Positions 3,351 through 40,899 of a stretch of 64,000 nt of DNA are shown piece by piece (positions within the stretch are counted from its first letter, which is position 1; every line of letters starts with the position of its first letter). The position numbers were made by a program, and so were the translations under genes. Source of the DNA: Cyanidioschyzon merolae (lineage: Eukaryota); assembly GCA_000091205.1 (NCBI GenBank), contig AP006496.2; one strand, given 5' to 3'. The notes under the pieces were generated by a model. That model searched no databases. It had not been told where the DNA came from and saw nothing but the letters and a program-made list of their open reading frames with translations.

Positions 3351-3393
<43 letters not shown>

Positions 3394-17199: not shown

Positions 17200-17480
17200 C
17201 GTTGAGAGCAGCGTTCAAGTTCTGATTACGCAGCTTGCGGTTGTTGTAGATGCGTTTGGTACACAGACGAAAGTTGCGATCTACACCTCGTTTGCAATTT
17301 TCATCTTCTTTGGATACAGCCTCTGCGCACCCTTCGTCGCAATGCCATTTGCCTGTGGTCAGGTGTTCCCGAATATCAACCACGTCTCCTTTGCCGATCA
17401 CCGCACTGTGGATCGTGAACGCCTGCCTCATCGTTCGATGCCTGCACTTGACGAGAACAGCGAGCTTCCCTGGTACGCCT
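17200..17480 (+). repeat. Diverged fragment (X) of the TIR repeat family.
   Basis: Aligns to the reverse complement of 23995-24300 (cggttgttgt.gac.ca.tt..tgg.acag.cg.aagttgcg...gcctgcctcatcg). The 23990-24410 copy in turn aligns to the TIR core (atggcggc.tt.aagtc.gg.tc.cg). Confidence 0.45.
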
Positions 17481-18439
17481 CGCCGGTTTCCGTGCCGAGT
17501 TCCGTACCCTACGATCACGTCGGGGAATACTCCGTCCGCTGTATGCGGAAGCGCATACTGTTTCATTGAACAGAGGATTCGTGGAGCGCGATGCTGTCCA
17601 TGATGGAACTAGTACCGAAAGAAGAATCGATGCTTTAGAACAAGTTGAGAGTTTTCGGTCCGTCAACGCACCCATCGTGCAACAGAGGGATGAAGATTTC
17701 TCTCTGGAACGAAATCGATTATCTAGCTTCTCAAGCTCAGTGATCTTTCGGCATGAGCTCGTGTACGAGCCGACAAGTGACGGTGTCGAGTGTGTTTCGT
17801 CGTCGGCAATCCAGCGATGCTAATTGCAGCGCTCACGAATCTCCCTGAAACGGAAGTATCGGAAACGAGAAGACTGCGGGATTTGAGGATACTGCACGTA
17901 AGGAAATAAGAAGCGCGGCAGCTCTTAGGCACGCATTGCACCATGATACTGGTTATTTTACGAATCCTTGTTCGAAAGCGTCGCAAATCATTTTGATCGC
18001 GGTCACTTACCGGACCACTGAGAAAACACGATCGAGCTTCCAAAACCTACGTGTGATTTCGCAAGCCCCTACTGCTGGACTTGGAATGTCGAGGATTTGC
18101 ATTAAATGAAAAAATTTCCGGAAAAATCGCAAGGCGTCGACAGAAAGACCACTTCCATGTCCCTGTTCCATCTGACACGGGTGAAGGAAGCGACAGCATT
18201 CACAGGACGTGAGGAGTTCCGTTCGGCTGACGGATCCTATGTACACAACACGAGGAGCGGGATGTTGACGAGCGGCCGGTCTGACGTTCACACTTCTCTG
18301 AGGCTACTGGTCTGGCTGCCAGCGGGCAGGTGCACTCCTTTTCCAAGGAGCTGCTGCAATCGCGTGGGGGTTGCAACCTCGCAGGAGGTAGCAGGCAGAA
18401 ACTTGACACTGTATGGTGCGTTGCGGCAACCGAAGAGGC

Positions 18440-18665
18440 TGCTCGCGAGAAACACCACCCCATGAGACCGGTGAACGCCTGTCCGAGGCTCACGCGGCAT
18501 ACTAGAAACACAGCGCTAGTTCGAAACAGCCTCCGTTGAGGTCTGGGACAGCTCACCATCCCATAAGACCGGTGAACGCCTGTCCGAGGCTCAAGCAGCA
18601 TACTAGAAACACAGCGCTAGTTCGAAACAGCCTCCGTTGAGGTCTGGAACAAGTCACCATAGGCC
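18440..18665 (+). repeat. Tandem duplication, 101-bp unit x ~2.2.
   Basis: ccggtgaacgcctgtccgaggctca at 18468 recurs at 18569 with ~95% identity across the unit. Confidence 0.8.
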
Positions 18666-19191
18666 TCCTTGCTTGGCATAGGATCACAGACTTGTTCATA
18701 GAACGCGCAGCAGCAGCAGCAGCAGCAGCCTGTGCCACTGCCTTCAAGTATCCCGCTGTTTCCAAGAAGCATCGGACGCGTAGTCAGATCGTAAGCAGAT
18801 ATTCGTTTTGTCAACCACTATTTCCGTGCCTGCACCTTATAAAAGTCCGGTCATTCGCTAAACTTGCACTCGAATATTGTAGCGGTATGCTGCGGCAACG
18901 ATCACGGCACGATAGACCGTTGAACTGGGACGGGAACGCGCCCACGCTCGAGTCTGTTCTCGAAGATGCATTGTCGTGGCCAAGAACGCTGTTGAACTGC
19001 GTCTTTCGGGTGCAATACGCCACCTTTCTTGCTGTAGTAAGCTGTGCTGCGCTACGCTGTACCCTACTGACTTGCGTTGTGCAGAACTTGCGTTGAACGC
19101 TCGCACGAGCGTCTGTGACTGAGCGGGCCCCGCAGCGTACCCCTGGGGTCTCCGTGAGCGTTGCGAGCGTTTCTTCATCGCCCCGGTAACT

Positions 19192-20304
19192 GTGGTTCAT
19201 CGTGTGCAGAGCTCTCCCATGGGTTTCCTAGCGCTTCAGGACAGGACAGAGGAGTTGCGCTCTGTCGCGCGACTGTTCGAGAGAGACTCGGCAGCGGGTA
19301 CCAGTGGAGCCACCGCTGCAGCACGTCCGGGGGACGCTGGGGCGGCGGCCCCGCAGACCTCGCTCACTCCCGAACGAACTGCAGAGCTGGCCGTAAAACA
19401 CTCACCCGGCTGGCAACGTAGCAACTTTGCCGTCTGTGCAGCGCAGATTGGCGGAAGGATTCACGAAACGTCCGCAAAACTCGCTCAACTGACTCGACTG
19501 GCGCGGCAGCGCTCTCTGTTCGATGACCATAGCGAGGAGATCGACCGATTAACCAGCCAAATCAAAAGCGATATCGGATATATTAATCATCAGCTCGACG
19601 AACTGCAACAGTTGGCTCGCAGAACTGCGGACCCGGGGAGCAACGGCGAACGACGCACAGGCGACAAGCGGACAGATGCTACTACTACTACTACAGGCAG
19701 CAACGCCCTAGCTCAACAGCATACTCGAATTATTGTGGATTCGTTGCGAGCGCGGCTTTTGAATGCGACGCAAACGTTTCAGTCAGTGCTGCAGGAGCGG
19801 TCAGCGACCTTACGTGTTCGCCCGGAACACAAGGCAGCAACACAGAAACTTCCCAGTGTGTCACACTCGATCTTCGATCTGAAGCCGAACGAGCTAGAGC
19901 GCGGCTCCAGCTTTCTAGATTTGGGTAGTGGCTCCCTCGGCGCATCCCAGCAGCAGCAGCAGCAGCAGCAGCTATGGTACCAGCCTCAGGAGCAACAGCT
20001 GGTGCATGCGCCACCAGCAGCATCTCTACGATACTACCAGCAACGAACAGATGCAGTTCAACGCGTGGAGGCAACGATTGTAGAGCTGGGCCAGATCTTC
20101 CACCAGCTGTCGCGAATGGTAGCCGAGCAAGGCGAGCTTGTTCAGCGCATCGACGTGAACATTGAGGACTCCCTGGCACACGTAGAAGGTGCGCATGGTC
20201 AACTGCTGCGTTATTTTGAGAGCCTGCGCTCGAATCGCGGTCTTATCCTCAAACTGTTCGGCGTTTTAAGTCTCTTTATTGTGCTGTGGGTATTGATTCT
20301 CTGA
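19192..20304 (+). CDS. Syntaxin-5 / Sed5-type Qa-SNARE (ER-Golgi t-SNARE). The start is possibly Met at 19219.
   Basis: N-terminal DRTxEL Sly1-binding-like motif (LQDRTEELRSV). SNARE motif IVELGQIFHQLSRMVAEQGELVQRIDVNIED...LLRYF matches Sed5 ITELGSIFQQLATMVQEQGEVIQRIDANVDD...LLKYF. C-terminal TM LFGVLSLFIVLWVLIL. Internal polyQ. Confidence 0.85.
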   Translation: MVHRVQSSPMGFLALQDRTEELRSVARLFERDSAAGTSGATAAARPGDAGAAAPQTSLTPERTAELAVKHSPGWQRSNFAVCAAQIGGRIHETSAKLAQLTRLARQRSLFDDHSEEIDRLTSQIKSDIGYINHQLDELQQLARRTADPGSNGERRTGDKRTDATTTTTGSNALAQQHTRIIVDSLRARLLNATQTFQSVLQERSATLRVRPEHKAATQKLPSVSHSIFDLKPNELERGSSFLDLGSGSLGASQQQQQQQQLWYQPQEQQLVHAPPAASLRYYQQRTDAVQRVEATIVELGQIFHQLSRMVAEQGELVQRIDVNIEDSLAHVEGAHGQLLRYFESLRSNRGLILKLFGVLSLFIVLWVLIL

Positions 20305-21973
20305 GCGCGCGCATGCAGCAGCATTCACCACTTCCAAGGGCATGCGAGAGCTTCTCGGAAGCGCTCTGCGACTCTATCCGCTTCCATGAATACGAATCAT
20401 CAAACGCAATCGTATGTGTTTCCAGAAGGATCGACGTAGCGCACGCGGTTATCTAGCAGTCGCCAACGCGAGTGTACGCACGGCATCGAGTGGTGTTTAG
20501 GGCGCTCCTAGGCAGCAGCGCGGTCGACGGGATCTATTCGCTCCCTGTATGACCGTTCTGCTATCAACCTGCTTCCGTTCTCGCAGCGGTGCAACAAAGG
20601 TGCATCGAGTTCAGGGTCCGGCTGACGTGCCAGCGATGCTTCGCACCGTATGCAGGCCTCGGTGAGATCGTGCAGCTTTCCCGCTGGCGCACTTCTGTTT
20701 TGGTTTCCTTGCAGCCACGTATTGCGCCTTGACGGAATACGAGCCTTTTCCGATGTCAAGGCGCGGTCAGGGCGAGGTTCGCACCCGGGCATCCTGCGCG
20801 TTCCCGGCATTCCGTGTTTCATGTCTCGCAACCGGCAGTTCGAGAACGAAATGCTGGTGTAGCACCCGAAACCTTTCCGTTCATCTGCAGAACATGGCCG
20901 TGCATGAGGCGGTCTCCTGTGAGCGCGAGATTCAGCTGCAATATCGAGCGTCTCGCTGGTCGCTATCGTGACTCGGCGATATCGACCTCCTCATTCGACA
21001 TGCGGCGCCTACGCACGATGCACTCAGTGCAGCATGCTGCAGCGATTTCTTTCGAGTCGTTTACTTTGCCGCCACGACGAGCGCTAGCGCACGACACCGA
21101 CGATGGTCAACGCTATACGCCCAGGCGCGAGATCGCGCAGGTAGCGAGCTGTCTGCACCGTGCTACCCGATACTCGCACTGGAGCTCATTGAAGTCGTAG
21201 GTGCTGCTGCTGCTGCTGCTGCGCGAGAGAGCCGAACGCCTCGCAGCAGCAGCAGCATCTGCGGAAAACCGCTCGTTGCACTCGAGCGCTGTTTGTGTGC
21301 GCATGACCTCTGGTCACGTTGTGGACCCAAGCGCTGCGCGCTTCATCCGTATGCAGTGGCACGCCACAGCGCAGCGTTGCGAGGATGCAAGTACCCTATC
21401 GCCTCGTAAAAGCAGGTCGTGCGTCGTGCTTTACATACAGTGGTCGTGTACCGAATTATCGCGCTAAACGCTGTTGGTGCACCTTTTTGTGATCTAGGAT
21501 TCATGCATCTAGTCAGAATCACTCGAGTTGTGCAAGCTGCCGATAGCCAGGGAAGAGACCGCAGCTCCTCGACAGACGCGGGCATCTGCCGGTACCTCCA
21601 AAATACTGTTCACCAGGGGATAGAGGCTTCCGCTAGTCACCCCGTGATGTTTCCTTGGAGGGTCGCTATCGACCCAGGGCCCCGCACCGCTGGTTGTGTA
21701 AAAAGTATCCGCAGGAGAGCCTCCCACGACACCAGCTGGAATGCCAGTCTACACGGCTCCGTATCGCTCACCACAGAATGACCTTGCGCTTCGGAAACGC
21801 TTTCAGCCGATCTCAGTAAGGGAACAAGTGAGGTTGTGAACATTACATGCTGTTTACTACACTCGACGCAATACATGCTGCTTGCTGTCGAATCCGAACG
21901 CTATCGACATATTCCGGTCTTTCCATATACGAGCCAATGAACACACTGGAGTGCTGCTCCTCGACGTGCGTGC

Positions 21974-22633
21974 TTAGGTGATCGTCACTGGTGTCTCGAC
22001 GACGTTGTTCGCATAGGTCGTTTCCTTGAAAATGTGATACGCGTTGCATTCAAGACGCAGCGTGTAGTGACCTGAAGGAACGCCCGTGATGTCAATCCAC
22101 TGGCACGGCAGCGAGTCATCGTAGATATCGCACCAGCCGACGCTGATACCCTGGAATGTGCAGGTATGGACAGGCTCCGCAGGCACGAGCGCTGGGTTTC
22201 CAGTGTACTCAGGGAAACGAGCCAGATCCTCCATGCAGAAGCTCTCCTTCTTGCCACTCCGCACAAGGTTCCCTGCCGAATCCCAGATGGAATAGTTCAG
22301 CATGGGTTTGCGCGTAATGAACTGACCAGTGCACGTATCCCAGGTGTAAATATTGGGATGATCCGCCGGGTTGCCGACCACAAAATCATCGGGGCCGTTG
22401 TTACCGATCGCACCTGCAAGCTTCAGCAGCTTTCTCGGGCCAGTTCCAAGAACGCAGCCCATTTCAAACGCACAGTCATGTGGCGTGAATGACTCCGTCT
22501 TGATCATCAGACTACCTTGGAGAATCTTTAGGGAAGGCTCCAGGTCGAACTTCGCCTGAGCTCGCACCGAAGACGCCACCGCTGCAAGGCAGACAAGGCA
22601 TAGAGCAAAGAGCGTGCTAATACGTTTGTACAT
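21974..22633 (-). CDS. Secreted lysyl-oxidase-like (LOX catalytic-fold) protein that lacks the copper-binding His triad (219 aa).
   Basis: Signal peptide MYKRISTLFALCLVCLAAVASSVRA. CQWIDITGVPSGHYTLRL...TYANNVV matches LOX CQWIDITDVKPGNYILKV...DYTNNVV, and KKESFCMEDL matches HKASFCLEDT. The LOX WEWHSCHQHYH position is YTWDTCTGQFI, so all three His are lost. The start was chosen at the internal Met of ORF 21974-23254. Confidence 0.7.
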   Translation of the reverse strand: MYKRISTLFALCLVCLAAVASSVRAQAKFDLEPSLKILQGSLMIKTESFTPHDCAFEMGCVLGTGPRKLLKLAGAIGNNGPDDFVVGNPADHPNIYTWDTCTGQFITRKPMLNYSIWDSAGNLVRSGKKESFCMEDLARFPEYTGNPALVPAEPVHTCTFQGISVGWCDIYDDSLPCQWIDITGVPSGHYTLRLECNAYHIFKETTYANNVVETPVTIT

Positions 22634-23989
22634 GGCTAGTGGACCTATTCCGCTATTAAGGGTAAATGCCCACAATCGCTGCTTTCGTGAAACCACCAAT
22701 TGCGATTGACATGATGTCGAAGATGAAAATCCGCTGCGATGCCATGGCGCACCGATCGAGCGATGGCAGAATCGGCACTTCGAGCCGACGCGCGCAGGGC
22801 CACCCGCGGGCCACATCCAAATTTGGGCATCGTCGGCGCTGTGCGCGCACACGCATGCATCTCGCGCTACCAAATTGGTATTTGCGTTGCGAGCGCGTCG
22901 ACACGCAGACCTGCGATCCTCGATGGCGCGCGCCTGCTGCGCGGCAGTCGCCAATTGGACGGGGCGTGCAGGCCTGCGATCGCCTGGCGACGGCCGCTCG
23001 CCGCGCCGCAATCCCGTCAGCTGGTGAACGGAGCTGCGCTGGTGGCGGCGCGTCGCGTGCATTCGACGCCCCGGCACCAGTCGCTGCAGGGCCGCTTCCA
23101 AATGTGGTGGGCACGTCGTCGTCGATCTGCGCTGTGTGGTGGATAGATTTGGAAGGTGAGCGTGTGGCATCAAAACCTGTAGGTACTGTTCTTGAATTGC
23201 GCTCTTTTTTTCCGAACCTTTTTTAGATGTACCGCTTACATGTTTGAAGTGCATCAGTACTGGCTTGGGGATTCATACATAGCTTGAAGACGCTCCGAAG
23301 GGTTTTCGGTGTTGCTCGTTCGACGCGTTGGCGCTTGAGCTCGATACCGCATCGGACTGAAGATGATTCGCGACGTATTCGAAAAATGCTTCGTAAAATA
23401 TCGGATATCGTGATCAAATTCGTACGTATAAGTTTCCGTTCTTTTCCTTTACTTGCGAGTGGCATGCTTAAATCACGCGTTCTTGAAGCAATCGATCTCT
23501 CTGTTCGATGGGCGTCGTATTTCCGGAGCGATTTGCGCAGCAGGATTGACACGAGGGGAGAAATTTTTTACGTCCTTCGTTGAAGACGAGTTCACGAGCG
23601 CATGACGAAAAGGCGAGTGAACTCGCCACCTCAAATAATGGATTCCGTTCGATAGCCAAATCGTCTTTCTTTAAGGCTACCGACGAAATGGAGCTCCTCA
23701 CCAGCAGCATGATAGCTCTCCCGGGCAATGCGCTCAGCAGATTCTTTCTCCTCTGTTTGCGTAGGAGAGATTCTTGGACTCGAGTCAAGCCAGCGATCGC
23801 GCCCACTGGGGAGCGCGTTACTGCTTTTCACGAAGCGAGCGTACAGGGATCAAGAGATCTCGACTTGTTTCGCAGCCTTGAATTCCCATGCAGTGCAAAA
23901 GTTCATCATGAATAGCATCGCGTTCCACAAGACTCCGAGCGAATGGGAAAGCGTGCGCTTCCACTTCCAGCGTACAGCGTAATCGTCGA

Positions 23990-24410
23990 GTCGATCGCCT
24001 ACAAGACGCCAATGATTCTAAGGTACCGCGACGCGTACACAACACGACAAGTGCATCCAGCGGTGCATGCGGTACCCGCCGAGCGCATGTACCGAGCGAT
24101 GAGGCAGGCCTTCACGCACCACAAGATAGCCCTTGAGGAATGAGGTGTGTTGGGCTTATAGAAACACCTTATTCCATCCAGCTCGCACCGCGGCGAAAGG
24201 CGCACTGACGCTGTGTGCAAAATAGATGAAAACGGCAACCTGAGCATGGAGCGCAACTTCCGCCTGTCCATGAAATGTGTCGACAACAACCGGAAGCGAC
24301 GAGATCCGGACTTCAATGCCGCCATGAACACCCTTTGGGCGTTGTAAGCGGAGATGGAGGCACGCGAGATACCAGCGTATTTTAAAGCCGAAGATACGAG
24401 ACATGAAAGA
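23990..24410 (-). repeat. Diverged fragment (Y) of the TIR repeat family, inside a GC-poor island.
   Basis: The reverse complement atggcggcattgaagtccggatctcg aligns to the TIR core atggcggcgttcaagtctcggttcacg. It also aligns along its length to 17200-17480. Confidence 0.45.
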
Positions 24411-25685
24411 AGCAGTGAAAGAAAAAGCCCGGATAGGTCAGTATTCCAGACACTGAAACGAGATCCAATCGATAAATTGTATGCCCGCGTTACTGGACCC
24501 TTTCCGACGCAGTCTGAATTCGGTGCCTTAATCGCTGGTTATCGTGCCACTGCGTATACGTTTCGACGAAGAAGAGGCTCCCCTGCGGAGAATTGAGCAA
24601 GGGTCCATGTTCGGCGCAGCGCAGTGCTCGATATGGCAGACCGCGGATTACCAGGGCGCATCGTCCGCGTCAGACACACTAGACACGAGTCGGTGCGCAC
24701 AGCATCCATTGTCAGTCTGCGAACACACGCAAAACCAGGTGCTTGGTCGGTGTCTGAGCACCCGCATTCGTGGTAGCGAGAAACCGATTGCCTGCGAGGT
24801 GCCTCGTATTCGATAACATGATGGTCGCTAGAATAGCCGCAGATTTGATGGTGCTTGTGTACGGGCCACCAGCGGCAAGTATCAACAACCTTACGAATGC
24901 GGTACTCCGTCGACAGTGCACACCAAGAGGACTCAGGCGCGGCGACCAGTGCATGCCGCGCTCAGGACCCGACGCTGGCGCACCACGAACCGGTCGGATG
25001 TGCGTCTATGCTTCAAGCGGCAACGGCACCTGCTCTGTCCATGCTTCGTACTGTACCATCCAATAGAGCAAAGGAGCGCCCTACCCGAAACGAAGCACGC
25101 TCGAGTCCCCGTTCATTGATGGCAAGCACTCGAGCGTGCTCCGCTTTCGCGAGCGAACCATAAAGCGCATTCTCGCCGTTTCGCCACTGGTCGTCTGCGG
25201 AACATAGCGCCGAGGTTTGTGACAGCGGGTATGTCGTGCAACCGTGGCCTCTCATCGAGCTCCAATGCCGGATCGGGTGCACTGAACGCTGCGTCACATC
25301 TGACGAGCCAATGCCGCAGCGATGCAGCACTAGAGGCCTTACGAGGCCGGCACTGTACCTCGACTCACATATGAGGATACACTTGCGGCCCGGGAAGCAA
25401 GGATCCGAGCGTATTCCTCCTGAATCAACGCTGTGTTCCCCGCGAACGCTCTTACGGAAGCCGCTCTACGAGGACACTGAGCCCGCGTTCTCGTGGGTAC
25501 GCGAAGCGCACCAGGGAAGTGCTTTGCTCACAGGCGCCGGTTACAGTGCAGTCGTGCGGCACGCCCCGACATCGCCATATACTGGCCTCACTGGAGTACG
25601 CCAGGAACGCGTGTGCAAGCCGCGGTTCTCGGAAAAACCCCAGCCGGACGCTCCCACAGCACTTGCCGTGGTGCTCCGGCAACTT

Positions 25686-25937
25686 TCACCCCGAGTCTCG
25701 AAAAACCGCGACTCTTTTGATCTCGTTGCGGAGCACGTGCTCGGCCTCTTGGACTTGGGCCAGTGCCTCCGCTGCTTCCAGCGGCTGCTGAACTCGGGGT
25801 CTGGTCTCAAACTCGTGACGAACAAGTCTCGCAGCTGCACGCAACGTGCGCCTGTCGTCACCAAAGGCAACTCGACAAGCACGCAGCAAGCGTCGGTACG
25901 CAGTGGGTGCACTCCATTCGCTCAGAGCGCCAGCCAT
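25686..25937 (-). CDS. LYR-motif (Complex1_LYR family) small protein, 83 aa.
   Basis: AYRRLLRACRVAFGDDRRTLRAAARLVRHEF fits the L-Y-R...F...R..F signature of LYRM proteins (SDHAF1/LYRM7-like). Confidence 0.4.
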   Translation of the reverse strand: MAGALSEWSAPTAYRRLLRACRVAFGDDRRTLRAAARLVRHEFETRPRVQQPLEAAEALAQVQEAEHVLRNEIKRVAVFRDSG

Positions 25938-26062
25938 GGTTACGCCCCAGTCCGCTCGGGTACGTCGACTGTTGAAGAAGGTTCACTGAGGCGCTCGCGT
26001 ATGCTGCGCGTTGTGTCAGAGTTCCCAGCTGCACTGGCGTACGGGGTGTTTGCCCAGACCGT

Positions 26063-26660
26063 CAGTGAAACAGCAAGGTTTCGCAGCTGTAGGGTAATTT
26101 AATACCCACTCGCAGACGCTTCTCAGTCTTTTTCGACCGGCCTACCGCTATTGGGTTCAGCTTCTGCTTGCACACGACGGGCACGACAGCGTGCGCCACA
26201 CAGTTGGACCGTGTGAGCTCCGCGGGGCTCGGCTTCGGCACTAGCCATCTTCTGATAATCATGGCGATGTTCAAGTCTCGGTTTACGAACTCCATGCGTT
26301 TCTTGAGGCTGGTTGATCTCACCAATGCATGTAGTCGTCTATTTCGCACCCTCTATGCCACTTCAGTCGCGTCAGCGTCCCGTCGGGTAAACACCTTTTC
26401 TCGCCTGTCTCTCCTCATCTTCGTGGTCACTAGCTCTTCTTCGCTTGATGGTCAGCGAGCAGAGGATTCTTTTTCGTTTTGTTTTGAGGCACCCGCTGAT
26501 CAGCGTCCCCCAGGATTCCCGACTTGCACATCGATACCTAGCCATCAAATTTTGGATTCCTTCAGATGAACGCACCTCGGGCGCGTCGTCTATAAACCGC
26601 GAAGAAGCATTTGAAGACATGCATCCACATATGAAATACCATTGAGGTGAAAGATGACAA
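26063..26660 (+). repeat. Solo TIR-like copy (C) of the transposon family. The terminus begins cagtgaaac.
   Basis: Aligns at ~75% to 217-780 throughout. Begins gtCAGTGAAACagc at 26061. Confidence 0.6.
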
Positions 26661-29018: not shown

Positions 29019-29893
29019 TCAAACCGACACCGAGTCGACAACCAGTGCCAACTGGATCGCTCGTGCACCGCACTGCGTCCGGTCGAGGCGTACCAGACGG
29101 AACGCACGGCGTTCGCCAATACGAAGGCGCTGACTGCGCTCTAGGGTCACCGTCGCCTCCATTTGATCATCCTCCAGAATGATGAGCGCCGTTCGCCCAT
29201 TCGACGACACGGATGCAACCAAGCCGTTCAAAACAAGTTCCCCCGGACCGAGACGCTGCACTTGTGACTGCCGCTCAGCAAGTACATCCAGCATGAGCGA
29301 TTGCCGAGATGCCACCACTTTCTGCATCCCCGCAGACGCATTTCGCTGAACTTGCGCAGCAATGCGTGCTACCTGTGCTCTGGTCAGCAGCGGCGCCTCT
29401 GCCCCATACTCAAGATAGAGCGAGATCTGACGCAGTGTCATGAGGTCCAGGTATCGACGGAGAGGTGCAGTGCCGAAACGCTGCGGCCGATACGCCTGCA
29501 CTGCGTTTGGTTCACTGGCGGTTACCTTTTGCGCCGCCAGCGTCCCCAGCTCCGTGTTCTGGACTCGTGTCCATCTAGTGACGGGTACAGGGATCTTGTG
29601 CTGTGCAGCAAATCGAATAAGTGCCTCACTAGCGGCAGCGAGTAGCGCATCCACGAGGCAGTATCCCGGAGAGAGTGCAAATTCCGCTACAGCCAGGCTG
29701 CCGTCGCGTCGATGCGCCACCCGCGCAATGCGCCCGGCGTTGCGGCGTTGACGCGCATGCATGCGTGCACGCATGCGCTGCTCCAGCGCTGCTGAATTCA
29801 GCGCTTTCTGTAATATTGTCAACGGGTTCGACGCTCTCTGCAGCAGTGTTTCGGTGCTGGTGTCTGTAGGTGACGATGCAGATGCAGATGCAG

Positions 29894-29938
<45 letters not shown>

Positions 29939-31805
29939 ATGCCCGCACGCGTCGATTACTCAGGATCAGACGATCGAGCTCCTCGTATGATATGCGCTGC
30001 ACAGGCGGTATCACACTTCGACGTACCGTGAACCATTCGATGGCGCCGAGGTCGTCGGACCCGGTATGCTGGTCGTTGCTGCGCTCACGGAAGCGCAGTG
30101 ATACGGTGATCGCGTCAGTCGCCAGATGCTCTGAGAAAGAGGCCGCGTTTGCCAACGGTGGCGGCAACAGGTGCAGAGGTCGCCCCGGCAGATACAGTGA
30201 CTGTGCTCGCTGGCAGGCAATCTGGTCTACTGGGTGGCCTGCAGGTAGCCAGCGCCCAATATCCACGATATGGACGTGCCAGGTCACCTGCAAGTCGCCC
30301 GGGCGATGACCCGATGCCCCCGACGACGGGTCGCAGCGCTGCTCGATCTCAACGGAGAAAGCATCGTCCAGAATTCGCGCTGATGAGGAATCCACACAGA
30401 ACGCGAACTGGTGACTCCAGACGCTTCGCTGATTTCGCGTACGCCCGCTCAGGATCCGGCTACGTAGTGCCCGAGCCGCAGTCATCACTGCGTCAGGAAA
30501 AGCAGCGATGATCTTTTGTCCGATCTTGGGCTCGGGGCATACGTTCGGTCGGCGCTTCAGTGTCGCGGGCGGCGTGCTGGCGCTTTCCTTGGACGTCTCC
30601 GAGAGGGTCCACTGACCGAGCTTCACCAAAATAGAGATAGCCGTGTTCGGTGAGACCTCCGAAGCGACCCGACGACAAACTGCAGCCGCCAAAGGATAGA
30701 GGCGCTCCAGTCGTGTCGACGGCGCCGACATTCCCTGCCGTTTCGTGCGAAGCGACGGCTCGAGGTTGCGGCGATGCTCGGAGCGAGAGGCCGCCAACAT
30801 TTCCAGCTCGCGTAAAACTGCGAGATGCTCCGGATGCCATGTCCGATCCAGTGACTGCCTCGTTGCATGTACACGTTCACAGAAAGACTCTACGATACGT
30901 GCGCGTACCATCGGCTCAGGTAGCGCTCGCCAGCCGCCACCGTACCGGGGAACCCGTCGGAAGCGAAAATTGTCGGACCCGAGCGTTATCGCTGCGAGTA
31001 TTCGCAATACGAACGGATCACACAGCGACTTGGCTACCGGTGAAGTGGTCTCATCCGCGGGCCAAAGTCGACGACGAAAACGCTCTCGCAAACGCAACTG
31101 GTATCGAGCTGCCAACTCGACAGCGGATGTGAATGGACCGCCGCGGCGAGCGCCTCGACAACTCACCTCCTGATGGAGCTCATACAGCCCCTCTGACAAC
31201 AACGCCAGGATTCCGAGACGGTCCGCAGACTGGAGTGCGAGCCATGACTCCGTCGAGTGCGGTTGCAGCCAGAGTCGGGCGGTATCCCAGGCGTGCTGCA
31301 GACGCGTCTGCGAGAAACGCACTGGAGGTAGCCACGCTTCAGGCTGCTCACCAGCAGTGCTGAGCTCCTCGAACAGCAACGGCGGTACCAGAGTTTCACT
31401 CCAGTTCGCAATGACTTGGTCGGGGGCGACACTTACCTCCTGGTTATCGGCGCTAACCAGGTGAACTCGAAAGCTCGTTGCGCACGCTGCCTCAGCTGGT
31501 GTCGTGCGCAACACACCAATGTGCACCGCTCGGTCGTGAAAAACCTCCACAACACTACAAGCCTCCGCACGTTCAAACTCGGAGTCCTGGACAGTACCCG
31601 GAAGCGGAGCAGCGTGCGCATCAGGAGCTGCTGCTGTCTCTGCTGTTGCTACCAGTCGGGCGCGCGGCTTCCGCCTCGACCGCCCCAGCGGTACCGAACA
31701 CCAGGTCGACGCACTTACTCGAGGTGTGCGTGCTTTTGATGTCCAGCCACAAGTCGGTACCGTGACAAAGCTAACACGCGTATGAGTCGCAAGACTGACC
31801 CACAT
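29019..31805 (-). CDS. RNase II/RNB-family 3'-5' exoribonuclease (organellar DSS1/RNR1-like), 928 aa, with a polyAla tract.
   Basis: RNB signature FGTAPLRRYLDLMTLRQI (~HFTSPIRRYADL). DDAFSVE acidic motif. N-terminal presequence-like region rich in R/S/T. Confidence 0.75.
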
Positions 31806-32895: not shown

Positions 32896-33999
32896 GGTAG
32901 ATTGCAGCTTTTACAAAAATATGCGGACGTTTCCAGGCGGCTCTGCAAGCTATCCGAGTACCCAGCAGACTGCGTACTCGTCGCGTCGTGAGGCTGCTGG
33001 TAAAAAGCGTAGACCCGCGTCTCCGGTGGTGCTGCCACCCGGACTGGCCCAAGCACAGCGAGCCAACGACGCACAGCGTCTACCTGCTTAACTGCCACGG
33101 ACGGTAGGCGCCTCAGACAACACGCCCTAAACGTTCTGGTCGGACGATTTGCGCCTCACGAGTCATAACGCTGGTTGAAACGTCCAACAAGGCGGCGGTT
33201 GCAGGTCAGCGCTTGAAAGGCAACGCCGCAGCGGGCGCGCGTTCCGAGCCGCACTGCTCGAGCCGTTTCCCCAGCCGCTGCTGTGCTCACAAGTCTGGGA
33301 ACATGTGGATAGTTCGCCTGGCTCGATCAGGCAAAGATTGGTTTCGAATAGGTTTGTGCTCGCTGATCTTGCTCCTTGTGCTCTTGTCGTCAAAGTCAGG
33401 TTCAGCGCGGCTGACAGGAGCCCGAGCGTGCCGACGCCTCTTCAGTGGACGCTTGAACTGGTCCGTGTTAGGGCGTTTTTCGCAGCGCTTGGTACCAGCG
33501 CAACTGGAGCTGAACCATGCCCTCGGTGTTTGCGAGAATCGGACGCATTGCTTTTGCGGCACGCAGCGAGTGCGTATGCTGAGCCTCTACCCGGACGCGC
33601 GACGAGTACGGAGTCTTGTTTCGCACAACGGAGGTGTGTCGTGTGCGCTGCGCCCTCGGGGTGCGCGCTTGTCCTACCGCTGCTCCTGCGAAGGGCTGAG
33701 CGTGTGTCGAAAAGTTGGTAAGAGGACCTCGACGCAGCCGTTGACGTTGTCTGCCGATACTGTCGACCGAGAGGTGCTCACGCAGCGCTTTGGCTATTGG
33801 GAAGTTCCCTGTGAACGGCGCGAGAGCGAGGCACTCGAACTCGTCTGCCGCTGATACACTAGCAATTGGTGCCTGCCGTCGCGTCTTTGAGGCGGGACTG
33901 TATTTGAAATGCACCCGACTGGCATGCACAGACTACCTTGTAAGCGCCAGGAATGCTGAGAGTGAGTCAGGGACCTCGCGGCGATGCAGCAGAATGCGC

Positions 34000-34215
34000 T
34001 CAACCTACTCTCGATGCGCTCAGTGTGTACACGACGAAAACATCACTGGCAATTTTACTGGGTGCTGTATTGTCGGGCTACTCTCGATGCGCTCAGTGTA
34101 CACGACTAGAACATTACTGGTAATTTTACTGGGTGCTGTATTGTCGGTCTACCCTCGATGCGCTCAGTGTACACGAATAGAATATTACTGGCAAGTTCAC
34201 TGGGCGCTTTGCCGA
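34000..34215 (+). repeat. Tandem repeat, ~65-79-bp unit x3 (ctctcgatgcgctcagtgtacacga...ttactgggtgctgtattgtcgg).
   Basis: Direct read; three consecutive copies with small indels. Confidence 0.8.
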
Positions 34216-35847
34216 GGGCCTTACTGCCGAGCACCTCGGTCGCATCGTGGATTCCTCGTGGACTCATCGAGTGTGTGGCGAAGCGGTCGAGTCTCTCAAG
34301 GCCTAGATAGCGCTTGTCTGGGTGTGTGGGTGTGTATATGTATGTGGCAGATTGCTAGCTAACGTGCTACCGGGATGCATCAAGTGCAGGACGCTACGAG
34401 CAGGTGCTGATGTCTGCGTCTGCAGAGCGCTCTACGACGCTTGCGATCGCTATGGATATTGGTGGACTCTGCGATGGAGCGTGATGCTGCTCTTGTCGCT
34501 GCAGCACGTTGTCTCGAGAGCCATTGCTCGGATATACGGCACTACGAAGAGTAGTCGCTCGTGCAAGAGGTATCTGCAAGGGCTTCCGAAGCAGCAGTAG
34601 GTACAAGAACGGTCGTGGGCCGCTCATATCACGCGAGCAGCGAGAACAATCATGCTCCAACAAGACGGCTTCTACAGCACTGAACTTGAAAGCCGCGCGG
34701 GTGCCGGAAGCAGTTACCAGTATCCGAGAGGACGACCTGTGCAGCGAGCCGAGGCTGCCACTATGCTTACCCTGGCGTCTCTGTGGAGAAACGCTTCTCA
34801 CGCGTTTCCCAACAAGTGTGGTAGAGCAAGCGCGTTTCCAGTAGCATCTTTGCGGAGGAACGCTTTTGTTTGGACGTGCACCCGGGGGCGGCGGCATTCG
34901 CGCTGCAACCGGTTTGCGTGGACGCTCGGTGTCATGCATGTATCCTGACCTATCCACAATAGAAATGCAACGTACGGCCTGGCCGGGTGTTTCTCTTTAG
35001 CGGTCCGCCAGAGAAACGTTCTCGGTGCCTGTGAGGACGATCAAGTTTCAGGGCGTGCAACGCAACTAGAACCGCAGCTCGATACAACGCGCTTCACCTC
35101 GGCGTCATGCAGCGCTGCAGCGCTTCCCAGTGCGACCACAAAAGACACCATGAGGCACCTCTCTGCGACGTTCTCCATTTGTTCCGCCAGCCGAGTGGCA
35201 GCTGCGACAGATACCAGGCACTGAGCGCTCGGCACTGTACCCGAGTCTTCTGCGCGACAAGCTCGCTATACCTGTTACTGGACATGCTGCAAGTAAATGC
35301 CCCTGTTTGGCTGCGCTTCCCCCGGGGCAACGACCTTGTCTGCACCGCACACAAGCAATACTTCGGGTACTGCGCGCTGGACTTCCATCCTAACGCAGAA
35401 AAAGTCTCTACGGGAGCACAGCGCCCCTGGAGGACGCGTAACAGCGCGCACGCTGAAAGCCCCTCGAAGCGAGCACACTCATCGGAGCCTCAACGACTCC
35501 GTGCTTCTCACGGAATTCACGCGGTCCACTCGTTGTTGATGCCATAAACTGCAGCTTCCCCTCAAAGCGTGAACAAAGGAGCCAGCGCAACACACCCCAG
35601 CACCAGCGTCAACGAACACACCGCAGAGACAACGATGTAGTTTGCTGGTTTTCAATCTATAGCACCATACGAATCGTGAGATACCCCCGATACAGATGCA
35701 TCAGATTGTCGAGTTCCTTTTTTACCCCGTCGTATCCATGGATCTACGCAGATTCCCCCAGTCCTGGTGCATAACGTCCACAGTTCCCGATAGTCGCAGC
35801 ACGTTCGCACCATCAGCGTTGCCCGATTCCATGCAGAAGCGTTAGCG

Positions 35848-36882
35848 TTGCAGCGCGCTGTTGCCATCCTAGGTACGCGTCTTTCAAACGAGTTCATGTC
35901 GTCCCTGGGAACGACTGCTACTACCATGAAAAATCGTCAAGTACAGCTGATTGCTCTGCAGATGTCCATGGTGCCAAACGAGCCTGCGAAGAACGTGGCT
36001 CGGGCAGTGCAAACGTTGCAAAGCTCGTTGACCGAGGCTGGTGCCGCACCAGCTGGTGTGCAACGGATAGCCCTTCTGCCGGAACTCTTTGCCGCGCAGT
36101 ACTTTCCTGTAGACGGCGGGGAACCGCGTCACTACAGTCTGGCAGTGCCGTCGCCGTTTACCGAGCCTGAACACTGGTTCTGGCGCGAGATGGCGAGTCT
36201 CTGTCGACAGACTGAGGTCGTGTTGGCAGTGTCGTTCTTCGAGCAGGCCGGGGGCTGGACGTTTTTCAACTCGCTGGCGGTGCTGGACCCGGGCGCTGCT
36301 GACCTCTTCGTTCAGCCTGTTTACAGAAAACTTCACATCCCGCACTCGCCGGGCTACCACGAAAAGTTTTACTTTTCGCCTGGCGATACCCCGCCCACGG
36401 TGTACCAGACAAGTCGGGGCATTCGCATTGGCGTCGGTATCTGCTGGGATCAGTGGTTCCCCGAGCTCGCACGATGCCTTGCGCTGAACGGTGCAGAAGT
36501 GCTACTTTACCCGACCGCTATTGGGAGCGAGCCCCAGGATCCGACGTTGGACTCGCGGGAGCACTGGCGTCGCACCCAGCAGGGTCATGCTGCTGCGAAC
36601 CTGATGCCGCTTATGGCTGCGAACCGTACCGGAATAGAGCTTGCCCAGGACGGCTCAATGCAGATTCGTTTCTACGGCTCCTCGTTCATCACCGACAATA
36701 CGGGTGCTATCGTGGCAGAGGCATCGCGAGACGCTGACCCGGTGGTGCTCTTCAGCCCCGTTATGGACCTGGACGCGTATCGGGAAGCGCGACTCGCCTG
36801 GGGCGTGTTTCGAGATCGTCGGCCCGATATGTATGGGTCGCTGCTGGCCTTGGACGGTGTAGCGAAGCGCGCGCCTGTGTGA
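35848..36882 (+). CDS. N-carbamoylputrescine amidohydrolase (carbon-nitrogen hydrolase family; polyamine biosynthesis). Likely true start at Met 35926 (MKNRQVQLIALQ).
   Basis: GICWDQWFPELARCLALNGAEVLLYPTAIGSEPQDPTLDSREHWRRTQQGHAAANLMPLMAANRTG is nearly collinear with plant NLP1 (AICWDQWFPEAARAMALQGAEVLFYPTAIGSEPQDDGLDSRDHWRRVMQGHAGANVVPLVASNRIG). Catalytic Cys in ICWDQ. Confidence 0.9.
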   Translation: MQRAVAILGTRLSNEFMSSLGTTATTMKNRQVQLIALQMSMVPNEPAKNVARAVQTLQSSLTEAGAAPAGVQRIALLPELFAAQYFPVDGGEPRHYSLAVPSPFTEPEHWFWREMASLCRQTEVVLAVSFFEQAGGWTFFNSLAVLDPGAADLFVQPVYRKLHIPHSPGYHEKFYFSPGDTPPTVYQTSRGIRIGVGICWDQWFPELARCLALNGAEVLLYPTAIGSEPQDPTLDSREHWRRTQQGHAAANLMPLMAANRTGIELAQDGSMQIRFYGSSFITDNTGAIVAEASRDADPVVLFSPVMDLDAYREARLAWGVFRDRRPDMYGSLLALDGVAKRAPV

Positions 36883-37164
36883 ACGCGAACAAAGAAAGCA
36901 TGAGTAGCGGAAAAAGCTGCCCGTCAGTACCGCGTAAGCATGCTCATCTCGGGACTTGGGCACGCTATTCGAGTGGAGCGCGAAAACGACGACACTGGTA
37001 GCGCTACGACACTGGACCTGTTGCCGGCTCGCTGCAACCGGATTGTCAAGGCCGCTCTCGGAAGTGTAGCGCAGCAGTCCATCGCGTGATACCACAGAAT
37101 CCAAGCGGTTTGTTCTTTCGATAGACACATCGAGCAGACTGACCAGGAATCCTCGATCGTGCAC

Positions 37165-37612
37165 GCGATATGGTACCGCTATGATCCAGGAAAGCGTGTA
37201 TCATGCTTTACCGGACCTCTTTTTTTCCATGATCCATTCTTGGTGTCGGCGATAATCCAGGAAAGCGTGTATCATGCTTTACCGGACCTCTTTTTTTCCA
37301 TGATCCATTCTTGGTGTCGGCGATAATCCAGGAAAGCGTGTATCATGCTTTACCGGACCTCTTTTTTTCCATGATCCATTCTTGGTGTCGGCGATAATCC
37401 GGGAAAGCGTGTATCATGCTTTACCGGACCTCTTTTTTTCCATGATCCATTCTTGGTGTCGGCGATAATCCAGGAAAGCGTGTATCATGCTTTACCGGAC
37501 CTCTTTTTTTCCATGATCCATTCTTGGTGTCGGCGATAATCCGGGAAAGCGTGTATCATGCTTTACCGGACCTCTTTTTTTCCATGATCCATTCTTGGTG
37601 TCGGCGACAATC
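37165..37612 (+). repeat. Minisatellite, 71-bp unit x ~6.3, near-identical copies.
   Basis: The unit ccaggaaagcgtgtatcatgctttaccggacctctttttttccatgatccattcttggtgtcggcgataat recurs at 37186, 37257, 37328, 37399, 37470 and 37541. Confidence 0.9.
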
Positions 37613-38279
37613 CGGTCATTTCGTATGCTCCACCGTACGCCGAGTCTGTTGTGAACGCCCGCAACAGCGCCTCTAGCGATACTCCAGACGCTGCATGGCG
37701 AACGAACGACTTTGCCGCTTGTCAGAGGGCTTCGGCTCATCGACTAGAACACCCCGTGGCTAGCGTGCACACCTGATTCATCGCATCGCTATCGATCCTG
37801 GGACGGAGAAATGTCATTGAAACTAAACATGGACTTGCCATCGCGAGACAGGGATCGCTTACCCCGTCAACTTGCCGTCTGTACGCACCGGAGTGGACGA
37901 GTTCCACTACGCTTCAATCCGCATTGCTTCTCGAGTCATGATGCGTCCATCGGATTGTCTGGATGCGAACCTACTGTGAGCGCTCGCTCACGCGCCCAGG
38001 CATTGCCACACGAAGGCGACAAATTGTTGTCGTAGCGCCATGCGGGTGTCACCGCTCGAATGCCTCCACTGATGCGCTGTCGCCGCAGCGGAGCGGCAGC
38101 CTGGCGGCACCAGTCGCTGATCAGCACCAAGTCAATGTCGTGGCTCGCGCGCTGCCAGGGCGCCCCAAGCAGTAGGTGCTCCACAGCTAGCGCCGAGCCC
38201 TGGTCGAATCGAACCCAACAACATAAAGTTTACACGGATAAAAATCCGAACTAGACCCGATGAAACTGTTACTCTACGA

Positions 38280-40112
38280 TTATGCGTTCAGAACGTTGCA
38301 AACAGACACTGCAGGAACCGGCCAGGCTTTCCGACGACTCTTGCGGACGCCCGAGAGACGCAACAAGCGAGTCTCGAAATTCAAGTTAGGATCGCATCCA
38401 TCCATAGCGAGGAGCGAAGCGTCGCCACCAGTACGCCGGTCGTCTGCTGCGTGTGCCGGGTTCGCGCCACAGCCGCCAGTCCAGGTGTCGCTGCCACTTG
38501 CACTCCGCCAAGGCCAATGAAACACACCGAACACGCTGCCTGGAGAGTATTGCGGGAGCCAGTTGCGCTCGGCGCTCGTGGAACCTGACTTGGTACAGCA
38601 GGATACCGAAAGCTCGTGCCCGTCACCTGCATCCCGCCCGCAACCCCTCGAACTGCTGCCTATCCACACTGTACCACCGGGCGTGCCACTAGTCCTGTCT
38701 TGGACGCGTTTCGATCCCCGGCCATTGGCGACGCGTTTGGCGAGAGACTTGATCGCGCGTCCCGTTGCCACTGAACGCGGTGGACGCATACGCCGACCTC
38801 TCGCCGAATGATGCTCCGTTGACTGAGATGTTGTGCCGCTATCCCGCATACCAGGTGCATCCTGAAACGCGCGCTCATACATCACTTGGTGCTGGACATT
38901 GCCAGGCTTCACGTGGCGCAGGCGACCCTCGCGCTTTGCCCGTGCACAAAACTCGCTGAGCGTCTCGCGGCGAAATGACGGATTCAGGTCGAAGCGTTTG
39001 CGCGAATCATCTGGCTGGGTCACCAGACAAAAAATGGAGCAAAACGCGTAATCCTTTTGAAGAGGGCGCCAGCACGTTCGACAGCGACTAGCGCTGCTCG
39101 ATGCCCCCTGCCACGAAGTTGGAACGTGGGCGGCGCCAGTGTCCGAGCCCGATCCACGAACTAGATACATGACTCGCTGCCCATTGTTCAAATAGCTCTG
39201 GACCTGACTCACGTCCATCTCTTTGCAGATGTCCTTGGCGAGCACCACGTCGTGATACATGTATCTACAAATGCCAATGTGTGGATGCGAGGCGTGTGGT
39301 GCATCACCGAATTCCAACTGGCGCTGTCGGTCGACGCAGAGCCGGCAGACCGCTTCGCAGCAGTGCAGACAAAACACGGTGCGCTCAATCCAGCGTTGGT
39401 TAACTTTCCGAGAATCGTGTCCCGCGCTCTTATGCACGCCGCAGATGCTGTAGAATGAGGTGCGGAAGAGCTTCGGCAGCCAATCGGCCATCGCAGCCAA
39501 TGGATCGCTACCGCCTTTCATGGGTGCCGAGTCCGTGTGCGTATAGCGACGGACGACGGAAGTCGGACCGCTGGTGAGCGCAACGCCCCGCTCGCCGCCC
39601 TCCGAGTCAGACGATATGGGCGTTGTTGGCAAGCGATCGTCTGCTGGCGCGCTGTGCGGCTGTGGTGCCGTCACACATAAAGTTCCATATTCGTTGATTC
39701 TCGAGTTCTCGCAACCCCCCCACAGCTTAGTGTATCCATCTGATGTCCATTCATTCAAGCTAGCTGTTTCCGAAGTGCTCGCGCAGTGCACGAGACTCTG
39801 TTCCGGCACTGCGGGAATGGTCGAGGTCTCGCAGGCGTCACGCACGCTGCTCACAACGCCAACGCCGAGAAAAGCGTCTCTGACGTGAAAAGCGTACGCT
39901 CCCCCAGGCCCGGAGGCCGAGCTGTTCAAACGCCCGGTCTGGGACGAGTCCATAGGGTCCAACGACACAACCCAGTATGCGAATGGACGTGTACACGGTT
40001 CAACTGCCGTGTAGTCGCTTAGAGAGAGCGTCTGTTCCATCCAAAATTTTGCCGCGCAGCAGAAATATCTACGATCGGGCAGATATGGCTGTCGGTGGCG
40101 TGCTGGCACCAT
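38280..40112 (-). CDS. PLATZ-domain zinc-binding protein. The start is probably downstream of 40112 (for example MEQTLSL).
   Basis: FCLHCCEAVCRLC...YHDVVLAKDICKEMDVSQVQSYLNNGQRVMYL...CRTCWRPLQKDYAFCSIFCLV follows the PLATZ pattern FC.DC....C..C...H..H..LQIRRSSYHDVV...IQK..DISGVQTY.IN...V.FL...C..C.R.L.D.FRFCSL.CK. Confidence 0.7.
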   Translation of the reverse strand: MVPARHRQPYLPDRRYFCCAAKFWMEQTLSLSDYTAVEPCTRPFAYWVVSLDPMDSSQTGRLNSSASGPGGAYAFHVRDAFLGVGVVSSVRDACETSTIPAVPEQSLVHCASTSETASLNEWTSDGYTKLWGGCENSRINEYGTLCVTAPQPHSAPADDRLPTTPISSDSEGGERGVALTSGPTSVVRRYTHTDSAPMKGGSDPLAAMADWLPKLFRTSFYSICGVHKSAGHDSRKVNQRWIERTVFCLHCCEAVCRLCVDRQRQLEFGDAPHASHPHIGICRYMYHDVVLAKDICKEMDVSQVQSYLNNGQRVMYLVRGSGSDTGAAHVPTSWQGASSSASRCRTCWRPLQKDYAFCSIFCLVTQPDDSRKRFDLNPSFRRETLSEFCARAKREGRLRHVKPGNVQHQVMYERAFQDAPGMRDSGTTSQSTEHHSARGRRMRPPRSVATGRAIKSLAKRVANGRGSKRVQDRTSGTPGGTVWIGSSSRGCGRDAGDGHELSVSCCTKSGSTSAERNWLPQYSPGSVFGVFHWPWRSASGSDTWTGGCGANPAHAADDRRTGGDASLLAMDGCDPNLNFETRLLRLSGVRKSRRKAWPVPAVSVCNVLNA

Positions 40113-40285
40113 TGAGCTGAAATGAACAAGTTTAGATCACTTTGATCCAAGTTGGGCTGCTGCTGAACGGACAGCGCACGGATAGCTGTCGGTGGTGTGC
40201 TGGCACCTTTGATCTTAAATGAACAATTTATATCACTTTGATCCAAGTTGCGCCGCTGCTGAACGGATGGCGCACGGAAGGCGTT
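40087..40285 (+). repeat. Tandem duplication, ~97-bp unit x2, directly abutting TIR fragment D and the PLATZ 5' region.
   Basis: gctgtcggtgg.gtgctggcacc.ttga.ct.aaatgaacaa.ttta.atcactttgatccaagttg.gc.gctgctgaacgga occurs twice. Confidence 0.8.
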
Positions 40286-40899
40286 GCGCTATGCGGGTAC
40301 CTCTCTGTGGTGCAGCATTTCCAATGGCATGCCATTGGGTACTTTTTCGCGGTCAAAAGCAGAAGCGTTCAAAGTGCGATCACTTGGTGATATAAAAAGA
40401 CCAATAGAAAGGTATGGACATGGAAGACGGGCATCCTTGAGGGCCTGGTGCCGCCGGATTCCAGAAAAAAAAAACGAGAAAAAGAGTCCTCGTCTCGCTG
40501 CCCATCGATTGTAGAAGAGCACGTGTCGAAGAAGAAGAAGAAGAGCGGTGATAGGCGAGACAAGGTGTTTGCCTGACGGGACAATGACGAGACTATTATG
40601 GCACAATGAGTGCGCGTTCGAAAAATCATCGTACTGATGAGTTCAACCGGATGCAATAAACGCATCTAGTTCGAGAACCGAGAACGGAACACCGCCATGA
40701 ATATCAGACGCTGTGTAGCGCTGAAGTCTAGACCCAGGGAGCTGACACCAGCCAACTTTGTGGGGCAGCCTCTCAGGCTATAAGTGTTCAACGAGAAACT
40801 GAGACCGATAGCAGGCGGCCGGTCAAAAAAGATTGGCAGACGCCTGTGAATAGGTACATATTTACCCTCCATGGTCGTGAAACGATGTTCGTTTTGCTG
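40286..40899 (-). repeat. Solo TIR-like copy (D) of the transposon family, minus orientation.
   Basis: The reverse complement aligns to 217-780 (for example agtctcgtcat.g.cccgtc.gg.aaaca...ctcgcctatca). The outer terminus is cagcaaaac. Confidence 0.6.

Follow-up and report, generated by a model that had tools for sequence, protein, structure and literature searches.

Two descriptions of dispersed repeats from Cyanidioschyzon merolae, a red alga, are the closest precedents for the short repeated elements analysed here, which lie in a 64,000-nucleotide stretch of contig AP006496.2 of this alga (assembly GCA_000091205.1; the whole stretch is called the window below). Bao & Jurka (2013, Mobile DNA 4:12) described CMe-1A as one Fanzor1 family of C. 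merolae, with a consensus of 3169 bp and ~150 copies that are each ~80% identical to it, and a shorter repeat, TE-N2_CMe, which is the 5′ 635 bp of CMe-1A and is present in ~70 copies; intact CMe-1 Fanzor1 copies are likewise reported by these authors (PMC3627910). Nozaki et al. (2007) reported a 3.2-kb interspersed repeat with 253 copies, ~5% of the C. merolae genome, holding a truncated open reading frame (ORF) that resembles WSV486 of white spot syndrome virus (the 'WSV repeat'; PMC1955436); their set also includes eight 'class II' elements. Because a white spot syndrome virus protein is listed as Fanzor1 by Bao & Jurka (PMC3627910), CMe-1A and the WSV repeat are probably the same class; this connection is our own and is stated in neither paper.

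The window holds long intronless ORFs on either strand at a G+C content of 52-62%, which fits the C. merolae genome, and the 768-residue Sey1/RHD3 ORF (14544-16850) matches the protein of C. merolae 10D at 100% identity. An earlier note on this DNA had described a single family of miniature inverted-repeat transposable element (MITE)-like fragments, understood as solo terminal inverted repeats (TIRs) of two transposase-bearing copies. We conclude instead that these copies are very probably decayed relics of two old Fanzor1 transposon families, the short copies of family 1 deriving from a single deletion derivative of CMe-1A. Together with two CMe-1A 5′-region fragments, the relics of both families total ~6.2 kb, or 9.6% of the window. 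Family 1 is already known as the red-alga repeat class represented by CMe-1A and the WSV repeat, so that the finding is largely ordinary, and nothing in the window looks functional today.

Relation of the repeats to Fanzor1 elements

The CMe-1A consensus and the 734-residue CMe-1 protein were taken from Additional files 2 and 3 of PMC3627910. When the window was searched by blastn with the consensus, all five family 1 copies were matched (225-780, 1767-1999, 12593-12825, 26112-26619 and 40343-40846; E values of 1e-15 to 5e-40) at a DNA identity of 69-75%, and tblastn aligned residues 612-729 of CMe-1 at 50-55% identity (E values of 2e-12 to 9e-28). Read in antisense, the block conserved best, 'aagtctcggttcacga', gives ...FVNRDLNAA..., a peptide that resembles the RuvC-III motif of TnpB/Fanzor. 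This C-terminal 'RD' motif reads VNRDLNAA in four copies and is degraded to ENRERNTA in copy D. Because of the blastn matches to CMe-1A and the tblastn matches to CMe-1, the 'TIR-like' repeated sequence is assigned to the 3′ coding end of Fanzor1, and the arms formerly read as solo TIRs of transposase-bearing copies are Fanzor1 C-terminal coding region. As judged from sequence, what the copies share is the Fanzor1 3′ coding end (RuvC-III 'NRDFNAA' motif) together with the 5′ leader of CMe-1A, and includes no TIR.

Like CMe-1A, the window copies reside in the C. merolae genome, carry the RuvC-III motif (NRDFNAAINIRRC) and have decayed to a similar degree, with ~80% identity to a family consensus. 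Unlike CMe-1A, they are not full length: family 1 copies retain the Fanzor protein only from about residue 612 or 640 onward, the remainder being deleted, and in none of them was the full signature D-X(125,275)-[TS][TS]-X-X-[C4 zinc finger]-X(5,50)-RD found in one frame. They are also more diverged from the published consensus (69-75% identity) than are the many CMe-1A copies at the metagenome loci described next (84-90%).

Beyond the window, a pattern scan of Joint Genome Institute contigs from environmental metagenomes (Ga0078972, Ga0080006, Ga0123519, Ga0209012, Ga0207433 and JGI24721J44947) yielded 52 loci (L003-L054); L001 and L002 are the window's own loci and do not count as independent copies. 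In overlaps with the window, which extend over up to 15 kb, identity is 99.2-99.6%, so the sampled loci are taken to represent C. merolae-like strains. On the strength of this identity the contigs can substitute for the remainder of the C. merolae genome, the samples apparently containing strains very near 10D. Many of the younger CMe-1A copies hold a ~78-nt internal unit (consensus 2117-2196) in 2-4 tandem copies within the Fanzor ORF (L046:926-1155, L016:878-954, L018:3404-3483 and L048:1160-1313). A further Fanzor1 C-terminal relic (CMe-1A 2737-2972, 75%), called as a 153-residue ORF, lies ~1.0-1.4 kb to the left of window position 1 (L001:887-1348).

Two stretches previously counted as members of the same family, 17200-17480 and 23990-24410, contained none of the three blocks proposed as common to it at ≤3 mismatches (≤1 for the 11-mer ctcgcctatca) and gave no BLASTN match to copies A, C and D. 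Two families unrelated by DNA had thus been merged. The stretches correspond to copies E and F of family 2, which together with copies G and H (Table 1) align colinearly for ~0.85-1 kb, with identities of 65-76%; self-BLASTN aligned E and F at 65% over 300 nt (17162-17461 versus 24368-24069). The 4-copy consensus peptide, ...VLDIWEHLTTANWHRCEG...NCNRSVDRNFRLCMKCVNNNRKRRNRDFNAAINIL.LLTSELEAQEGPAYLK, was scored against a hidden Markov model (HMM) of the Fanzor1 C terminus made from Chlamydomonas, Chlorella and Pythium sequences only, and reached 30.9 bits (E 1.8e-8), the best of 1000 shuffles scoring 8.2 bits. It also matched Pfam PF07282 (Cas12f1-like TNB, formerly OrfB_Zn_ribbon) with an E value of 1.1e-5 and 25.9 bits. 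The peptide of copy H matched the Fanzor1 C-terminal HMM, which was built without C. merolae sequences, with an E value of 0.0019. The consensus displays the pattern ..EHLTT..C..C....C..C...NRD, every single copy being interrupted. In view of the HMM and Pfam scores, and since it has only NRDFNAAINI in common with CMe-1, we regard family 2 as a distinct, older Fanzor1-like family. Further copies were present in other sampled loci. For the C. merolae genome, a single Fanzor family is listed by Bao & Jurka (PMC3627910).

Structure and spread of the short family 1 copies

Family 1 includes three short copies in the window, A_left, C and D, of 556-604 bp, which have no transposase gene and only relic Fanzor codons. 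The copies that the earlier note placed at 26063-26660 and 40286-40899 were recovered by self-BLASTN, with coordinates good to ~10 nt. A_left aligned with C (255-637 versus 26093-26472, 72.9%, E 5e-55) and, in inverted orientation, with D (286-637 versus 40835-40481, 70.7%, E 7e-41), and C with D (26088-26539 versus 40871-40410, 69.8%, E 5e-49); all three co-aligned over ~550 nt in MAFFT. The proposal of common internal blocks held for two of the three, both far above chance in family 1: 'gtctttttcgaccggcc' occurs at 288, 26126 and 40817 (3 matches against 0.16 expected) and 'aagtctcggttcacga' at 433, 1935, 12642 and 26273. The 11-mer, found at 559 and 40549 only, is at chance level.

Local and multiple alignments divide each short copy into two CMe-1A segments. 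The first (CMe-1A ~825-1062) comprises the leader and, from the ATG at 906, ~52 codons, and is joined directly to the second (~2810/2837-3084), which encodes the last ~105 codons with the RuvC-III motif and tail. The 3′ terminus of ~60 nt ends ...GTTT(C/T)(A/G)(C/T)TGA and is unlike the published consensus end, from which it differs in having ~35 nt extra and in lacking the last ~55 nt; consensus positions 1 to ~770 are missing from the three copies as well. TE-N2_CMe (Repbase; 635 bp) is likewise a short non-coding CMe-1A relative of similar length. The short copies match CMe-1A ~825-1062 and ~2810-3084 rather than 1-635, and since other segments are matched they represent a different derivative.

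The junction between CMe-1A ~1062 and ~2810-2837, a deletion of ~1.77 kb, is present in all three short copies of the window, and the same junction was found in four further copies at other loci (L009, L019, L027 and L036). Seven copies at seven loci therefore show one junction within alignment resolution. Because the junction is common and the flanks are unrelated, we trace all seven to one deletion derivative that spread. In their majority consensus a single ORF of ~160 residues is restored (MDMEVGDPGG...KKKKK...DDDETVVAQRARVRGILALMSSTSGNKRMEFVNRDFNAAMNIRRC...), which indicates that the deletion was in frame. The earlier view of a dispersed, short, non-autonomous repeat family in a repeat-poor genome is thus supported, and its expected presence elsewhere in the genome is borne out both by the four further junction-bearing copies and, for the parent family, by the ~150-253 copies in the literature (PMC3627910, PMC1955436).

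Compared with the 7-copy consensus the short copies show 76-84% identity, and compared pairwise 61-71%. Substitutions are even over the codon positions (202/185/227; chi-square p 0.11 for the seven copies), in-frame stops interrupt six of the seven and all seven have indels. This is the pattern expected of copies that decayed neutrally after insertion.

In our reading, the CMe-1A derivative retained only the 5′ leader and first ~52 codons, fused in frame to the final ~105 codons together with the 3′ terminus. This derivative reached seven or more loci, presumably carried in trans by the machinery responsible for moving CMe-1, and the copies then decayed neutrally. By analogy with characterised Fanzors, the retained 3′ end may once have encoded a guide-RNA scaffold.

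Transposase-bearing units and alternative explanations

Copy A consists of A_left placed head-to-head with a 1391-bp unit (A unit), and an inverted duplicate of this unit (B unit) lies 10.3 kb away. The two are 98.7% identical over 1391 nt, which points to recent duplication of the segment. A 234-residue ORF in the A unit (960-1664) fell below the threshold for Pfam DDE_3 (E 5.7e-4; 20.2 bits against 28.6), and HMMER, run in full against 1.84 billion representatives, returned 166 homologues at E≤1e-3. Since its ~300-residue homologues are clear DDE_3 proteins (1e-22 to 1e-26) that also contain HTH_Tnp_Tc3_2, the ORF, which lacks ~50-65 N-terminal residues, is assigned to an IS630/Tc1-mariner-type transposase pseudogene. 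About 100 nt past its stop codon, on the same strand, a Fanzor1 C-terminal segment begins at residue 612 (residues 612-721, nt 1767-2095). No inverted repeat was detected between 775-850 and either 1660-1790 or 2095-2175 of the A unit (equalled by 422 and 950 of 1000 shuffles), and the sequences flanking the 3′ ends of the A and B units are ACAC and AATG. A word-indexed protein search with the 170-residue ORF at 1658-2170 and the copy E peptide returned only the same metagenome loci. The inverted A and B units bracket a 10.3-kb gene-bearing segment and could permit its inversion by homologous recombination.

The placing of a Fanzor tail next to a transposase is reminiscent of the Mariner-Fanzor1 composites described by Bao & Jurka (2013), such as PUl-1 of Pythium ultimum, in which an IS630/Tc1-mariner-type frame is likewise followed by Fanzor1 on the same strand, and it provides a lead. 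The A and B units differ in that the transposase is without its N terminus and its catalytic motifs appear degenerate by reading, and in that they hold only Fanzor residues 612-729, with no TIRs or TA duplications. There is no detectable similarity to the PUl-1 transposase, which gave no tblastn match in the window, and the juxtaposition could be secondary.

The alternative that builds on the earlier note is that the short copies are MITE-like solo TIRs mobilised through shared TIRs by the transposase of a Tc1/mariner-like element. Fanzor1 genes do ride in Mariner elements elsewhere (PMC3627910), and a Fanzor-tail segment is inverted on both sides of the DDE_3-type pseudogene in copy A (363-515 versus 2022-1868, 74%). 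The transposase-bearing pair itself stands, in the sense that two copies carry the pseudogene, but the TIR-bounded autonomous element with solo TIRs fails: no TIR surrounds the A or B unit, copy B has no left arm despite its identity to A across the unit, and the arms of copy A share 74% identity, against 98.7% for the units. The DDE_3 segment, moreover, had no other copy among the 52 other CMe-1-bearing loci. As for the short copies, they resemble Stowaway- or Tourist-type MITEs in being small (<~800 bp), without a transposase, often near genes and apparently derived from a larger element by an internal deletion that was later amplified. They differ in showing neither significant TIRs nor recognisable target-site duplications, in holding coding remnants in one frame, in being few (seven seen) and very diverged, and in having a parent element without a known transposase. 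When the 5′ 60 nt of the short-copy consensus were compared with the reverse complement of its 3′ 70 nt, the score of 8 was reached by 525 of 5000 shuffles. Inverted similarity of 3′ termini to the CMe-1A 5′ terminus was absent for C and A_left and marginal for the right arm of copy A and D (23 and 43 of 2000 shuffles, p ~0.01-0.02), and is not relied on. Flanks at the short-copy 3′ ends showed no common dinucleotide or direct repeat, with no TA or other target-site duplication visible, and the 5′ ends are too ragged to be placed. P-MITE, in addition, records no MITEs in C. merolae (PMC3964958). With the common arm being Fanzor1 coding sequence, we judge the MITE explanation very unlikely.

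Independent decay or deletion of full-length CMe-1A at each site, or segmental duplication, could in principle also have produced short copies, given that internal deletions are common in old transposable element (TE) copies and that the junction coincides with a short stretch of microhomology (ATGG..AAAG), which might arise again. Against this, all seven copies have an identical junction within alignment resolution and all carry, at the 3′ end, ~35 nt missing from the CMe-1A consensus, in unrelated flanks, and we attach almost no credence to such repeated origins. A different possibility is that the copies were retained by function, as stand-alone guide-RNA (omegaRNA or Fanzor RNA, fRNA) genes, as decoys for a Fanzor expressed elsewhere or as cis-regulatory modules, for instance in the PLATZ-gene promoter. 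Fanzors are RNA-guided DNA endonucleases whose guide RNA, where characterised, derives from the 3′ region next to the transposon right end (PMC10530073), and it is exactly the leader/start region and the 3′ end that are kept, the element 3′ end in all copies. WSV repeats have been reported as transcribed (PMC1955436), copy D lies close to the PLATZ start codon, and Chlamydomonas reinhardtii has 20 extra fRNA copies that likewise consist of the 3′ Fanzor part without the nuclease gene (Jiang et al. 2023, Sci Adv; PMC10530073). Those, in contrast, are highly conserved, whereas the C. merolae short copies are 61-71% identical, with the even codon-position substitutions that neutral decay predicts and no sign of structural conservation: scanning the whole window against Rfam at gathering thresholds returned 0 matches, and RNAalifold on eight independent CMe-1A 3′ ends, younger copies included, returned a covariation term of +2.03 (a penalty). 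In the sampled loci none of 11 long CMe-1A copies examined had an intact Fanzor ORF, and the repressive mark H3K27me3 lies on about half of the C. merolae repeats, whose expression is low (PMC5405695). Retention by function is accordingly a highly improbable account. C. merolae is without RNA interference machinery (PMC11376382), so a small-RNA test of the repeats would be little informative in the usual sense.

Descent of both families from Fanzor1 elements, with one CMe-1A deletion derivative behind the short copies, therefore remains our preferred interpretation, and several points weigh against it. Individual window peptides found no Fanzor or TnpB match in searches of Pfam and PDB sequences; the assignment is founded on the CMe-1 sequences from the literature and on reconstructed consensuses. 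For family 2, the PF07282 match is 0.4 bits under the gathering score of 26.3. CMe-1A itself was described without TIRs, with target-site duplications that could not be determined and with its classification given as unknown (PMC3627910). Finally, the short copies have uneven 5′ ends (about CMe-1A 775-840), which fits complete transposable units and 5′-truncated copies alike.

A bolder extension, which we think unlikely as a whole, is that the ~0.6-kb copies are fossils of a once-active 'mini-Fanzor' satellite that parasitised full-length CMe-1, and that the main repeat class of C. merolae began as Mariner-borne Fanzors. Such a satellite would have kept only the 3′ guide-RNA/right-end region and, in frame with each other, a basic N-terminal stretch of ~52 residues and ~105 C-terminal residues. 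The Mariner-borne origin leans on the Fanzor1 tail beside the IS630/Tc1-mariner pseudogene and on the second, older Fanzor1 lineage; if true, it would settle the 'classification unknown' given to CMe-1A in 2013.

Some features of the element ends were seen in passing. CMe-1A consensus positions 5-24 and 3086-3106 form an imperfect inverted repeat of ~20 nt (GACAAAACGT...TGAC; 8 of 2000 shuffles) in a family described without TIRs, and the last ~55 nt of the consensus comprise a GC-rich hairpin followed by a T-run. A T-rich motif, TTTTGTTT(T)C, lies ahead of independent CMe-1A/TE-N2 5′ ends (L008:4765-4810, L012:6084-6129 and L019:1977-2022), and TTTG or TTGT follows many CMe-1A 3′ ends (L005, L012, L018 and L024). 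Either the published consensus ends a few nucleotides short or these flanks reflect a target-site preference; only two complete copies bear on this.

Neighbouring features and significance

The coordinates of the relics and of adjoining features are collected in Table 1.

Table 1. Positions of Fanzor1-derived relics and neighbouring features in the window
Feature	Position	Strand	Basis or remark
Short copy A_left (Delta-CMe-1), family 1	225..780	-	CMe-1A blastn/tblastn, local and multiple alignments; CMe-1A ~825-1062 joined to ~2840-3084, then 3′ terminus; head-to-head against A unit
A unit, 1391 bp	781..2170	+	Transposase pseudogene, Fanzor1 C-terminal segment, family 3′ terminus ending ...GTTTCATTGA
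B unit, inverted duplicate of A unit	12424..13811	-	Self-comparison, CMe-1A matches; no short copy adjoining
Short copy C (Delta-CMe-1), family 1	26062..26653	- (Fanzor sense strand)	Self-BLASTN, CMe-1A blastn/tblastn, alignments
Short copy D (Delta-CMe-1), family 1	40297..40900	+	Self-BLASTN, CMe-1A blastn/tblastn, alignments; head-to-head with PLATZ gene
CMe-1A 5′-region relic (consensus 58-557, 71.8%)	40958..41464	+	blastn E 1e-67
Weak relic of CMe-1A 60-252 (66.8%)	37542..37738	+	blastn E 2e-6; borders 71-nt tandem array
Copy E, family 2 (17200-17480 in the earlier note)	17162..17994	-	ORF 17192-17566 ends ...NRKLRNQNLNAALNVL*
Copy F, family 2 (23990-24410 in the earlier note)	23360..24368	+	Self-BLASTN, consensus peptide
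Copy G, family 2 (absent from the earlier note)	9337..10111	+	Self-BLASTN, consensus peptide
Copy H, family 2	48257..48460	-	Peptide RDFETAVYILRLLASELDTEKRPAYLR matches Fanzor1 C-terminal HMM
PLATZ-domain gene, neighbour not part of repeat	38280..40112	-	Pfam PF04640, E 3.4e-17
Tandem duplication, 2 x ~97 nt, 89%	40085..40278	.	Between PLATZ and copy D; no homology to repeat family
Tandem duplication, 2 x 101 nt, 93%	18453..18654	.	~460 nt past detected end of copy E

As had been noticed before, copy D adjoins the start of the PLATZ gene at a distance of ~185 nt from the ATG, and tandem duplications are present near two copies. The relic beyond copy D begins ~58 nt past its 3′ end and belongs to the region equated with TE-N2_CMe by Bao & Jurka. 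High-identity tandem arrays occur at 44769-45812 (93 nt x ~11, 99%), 37107-37674 (71 nt x ~8, 98-99%), 56113-56403 (97 nt x 3) and 34025-34237 (71 nt x 3). The 93-nt array sits within long ORFs of both strands, and the ~8-unit 71-nt array adjoins the weak CMe-1A 5′-region relic. CAG/CTG runs of polyglutamine/alanine type lie in or beside long ORFs at 3335-3404, 18700-18751, 19937-20006, 29870-29954 and 46114-46183. Three long ORFs of 550-607 residues, 4166-5911 (+), 42706-44529 (-) and 58707-60359 (-), had no Pfam domain at E≤1e-3 and were not Fanzor-like by tblastn or motif search.

For TE annotators and those searching red algae for Fanzors, the analysis makes small additions: an in-frame deletion subfamily with a single junction, found at seven or more loci, a second and apparently older Fanzor1-like family in C. 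merolae, and a Fanzor tail behind a transposase pseudogene of IS630/Tc1-mariner type. Its main value is as a correction, in that apparent MITE-type TIR fragments very probably belong to the principal known repeat class of C. merolae, which is derived from Fanzor1.

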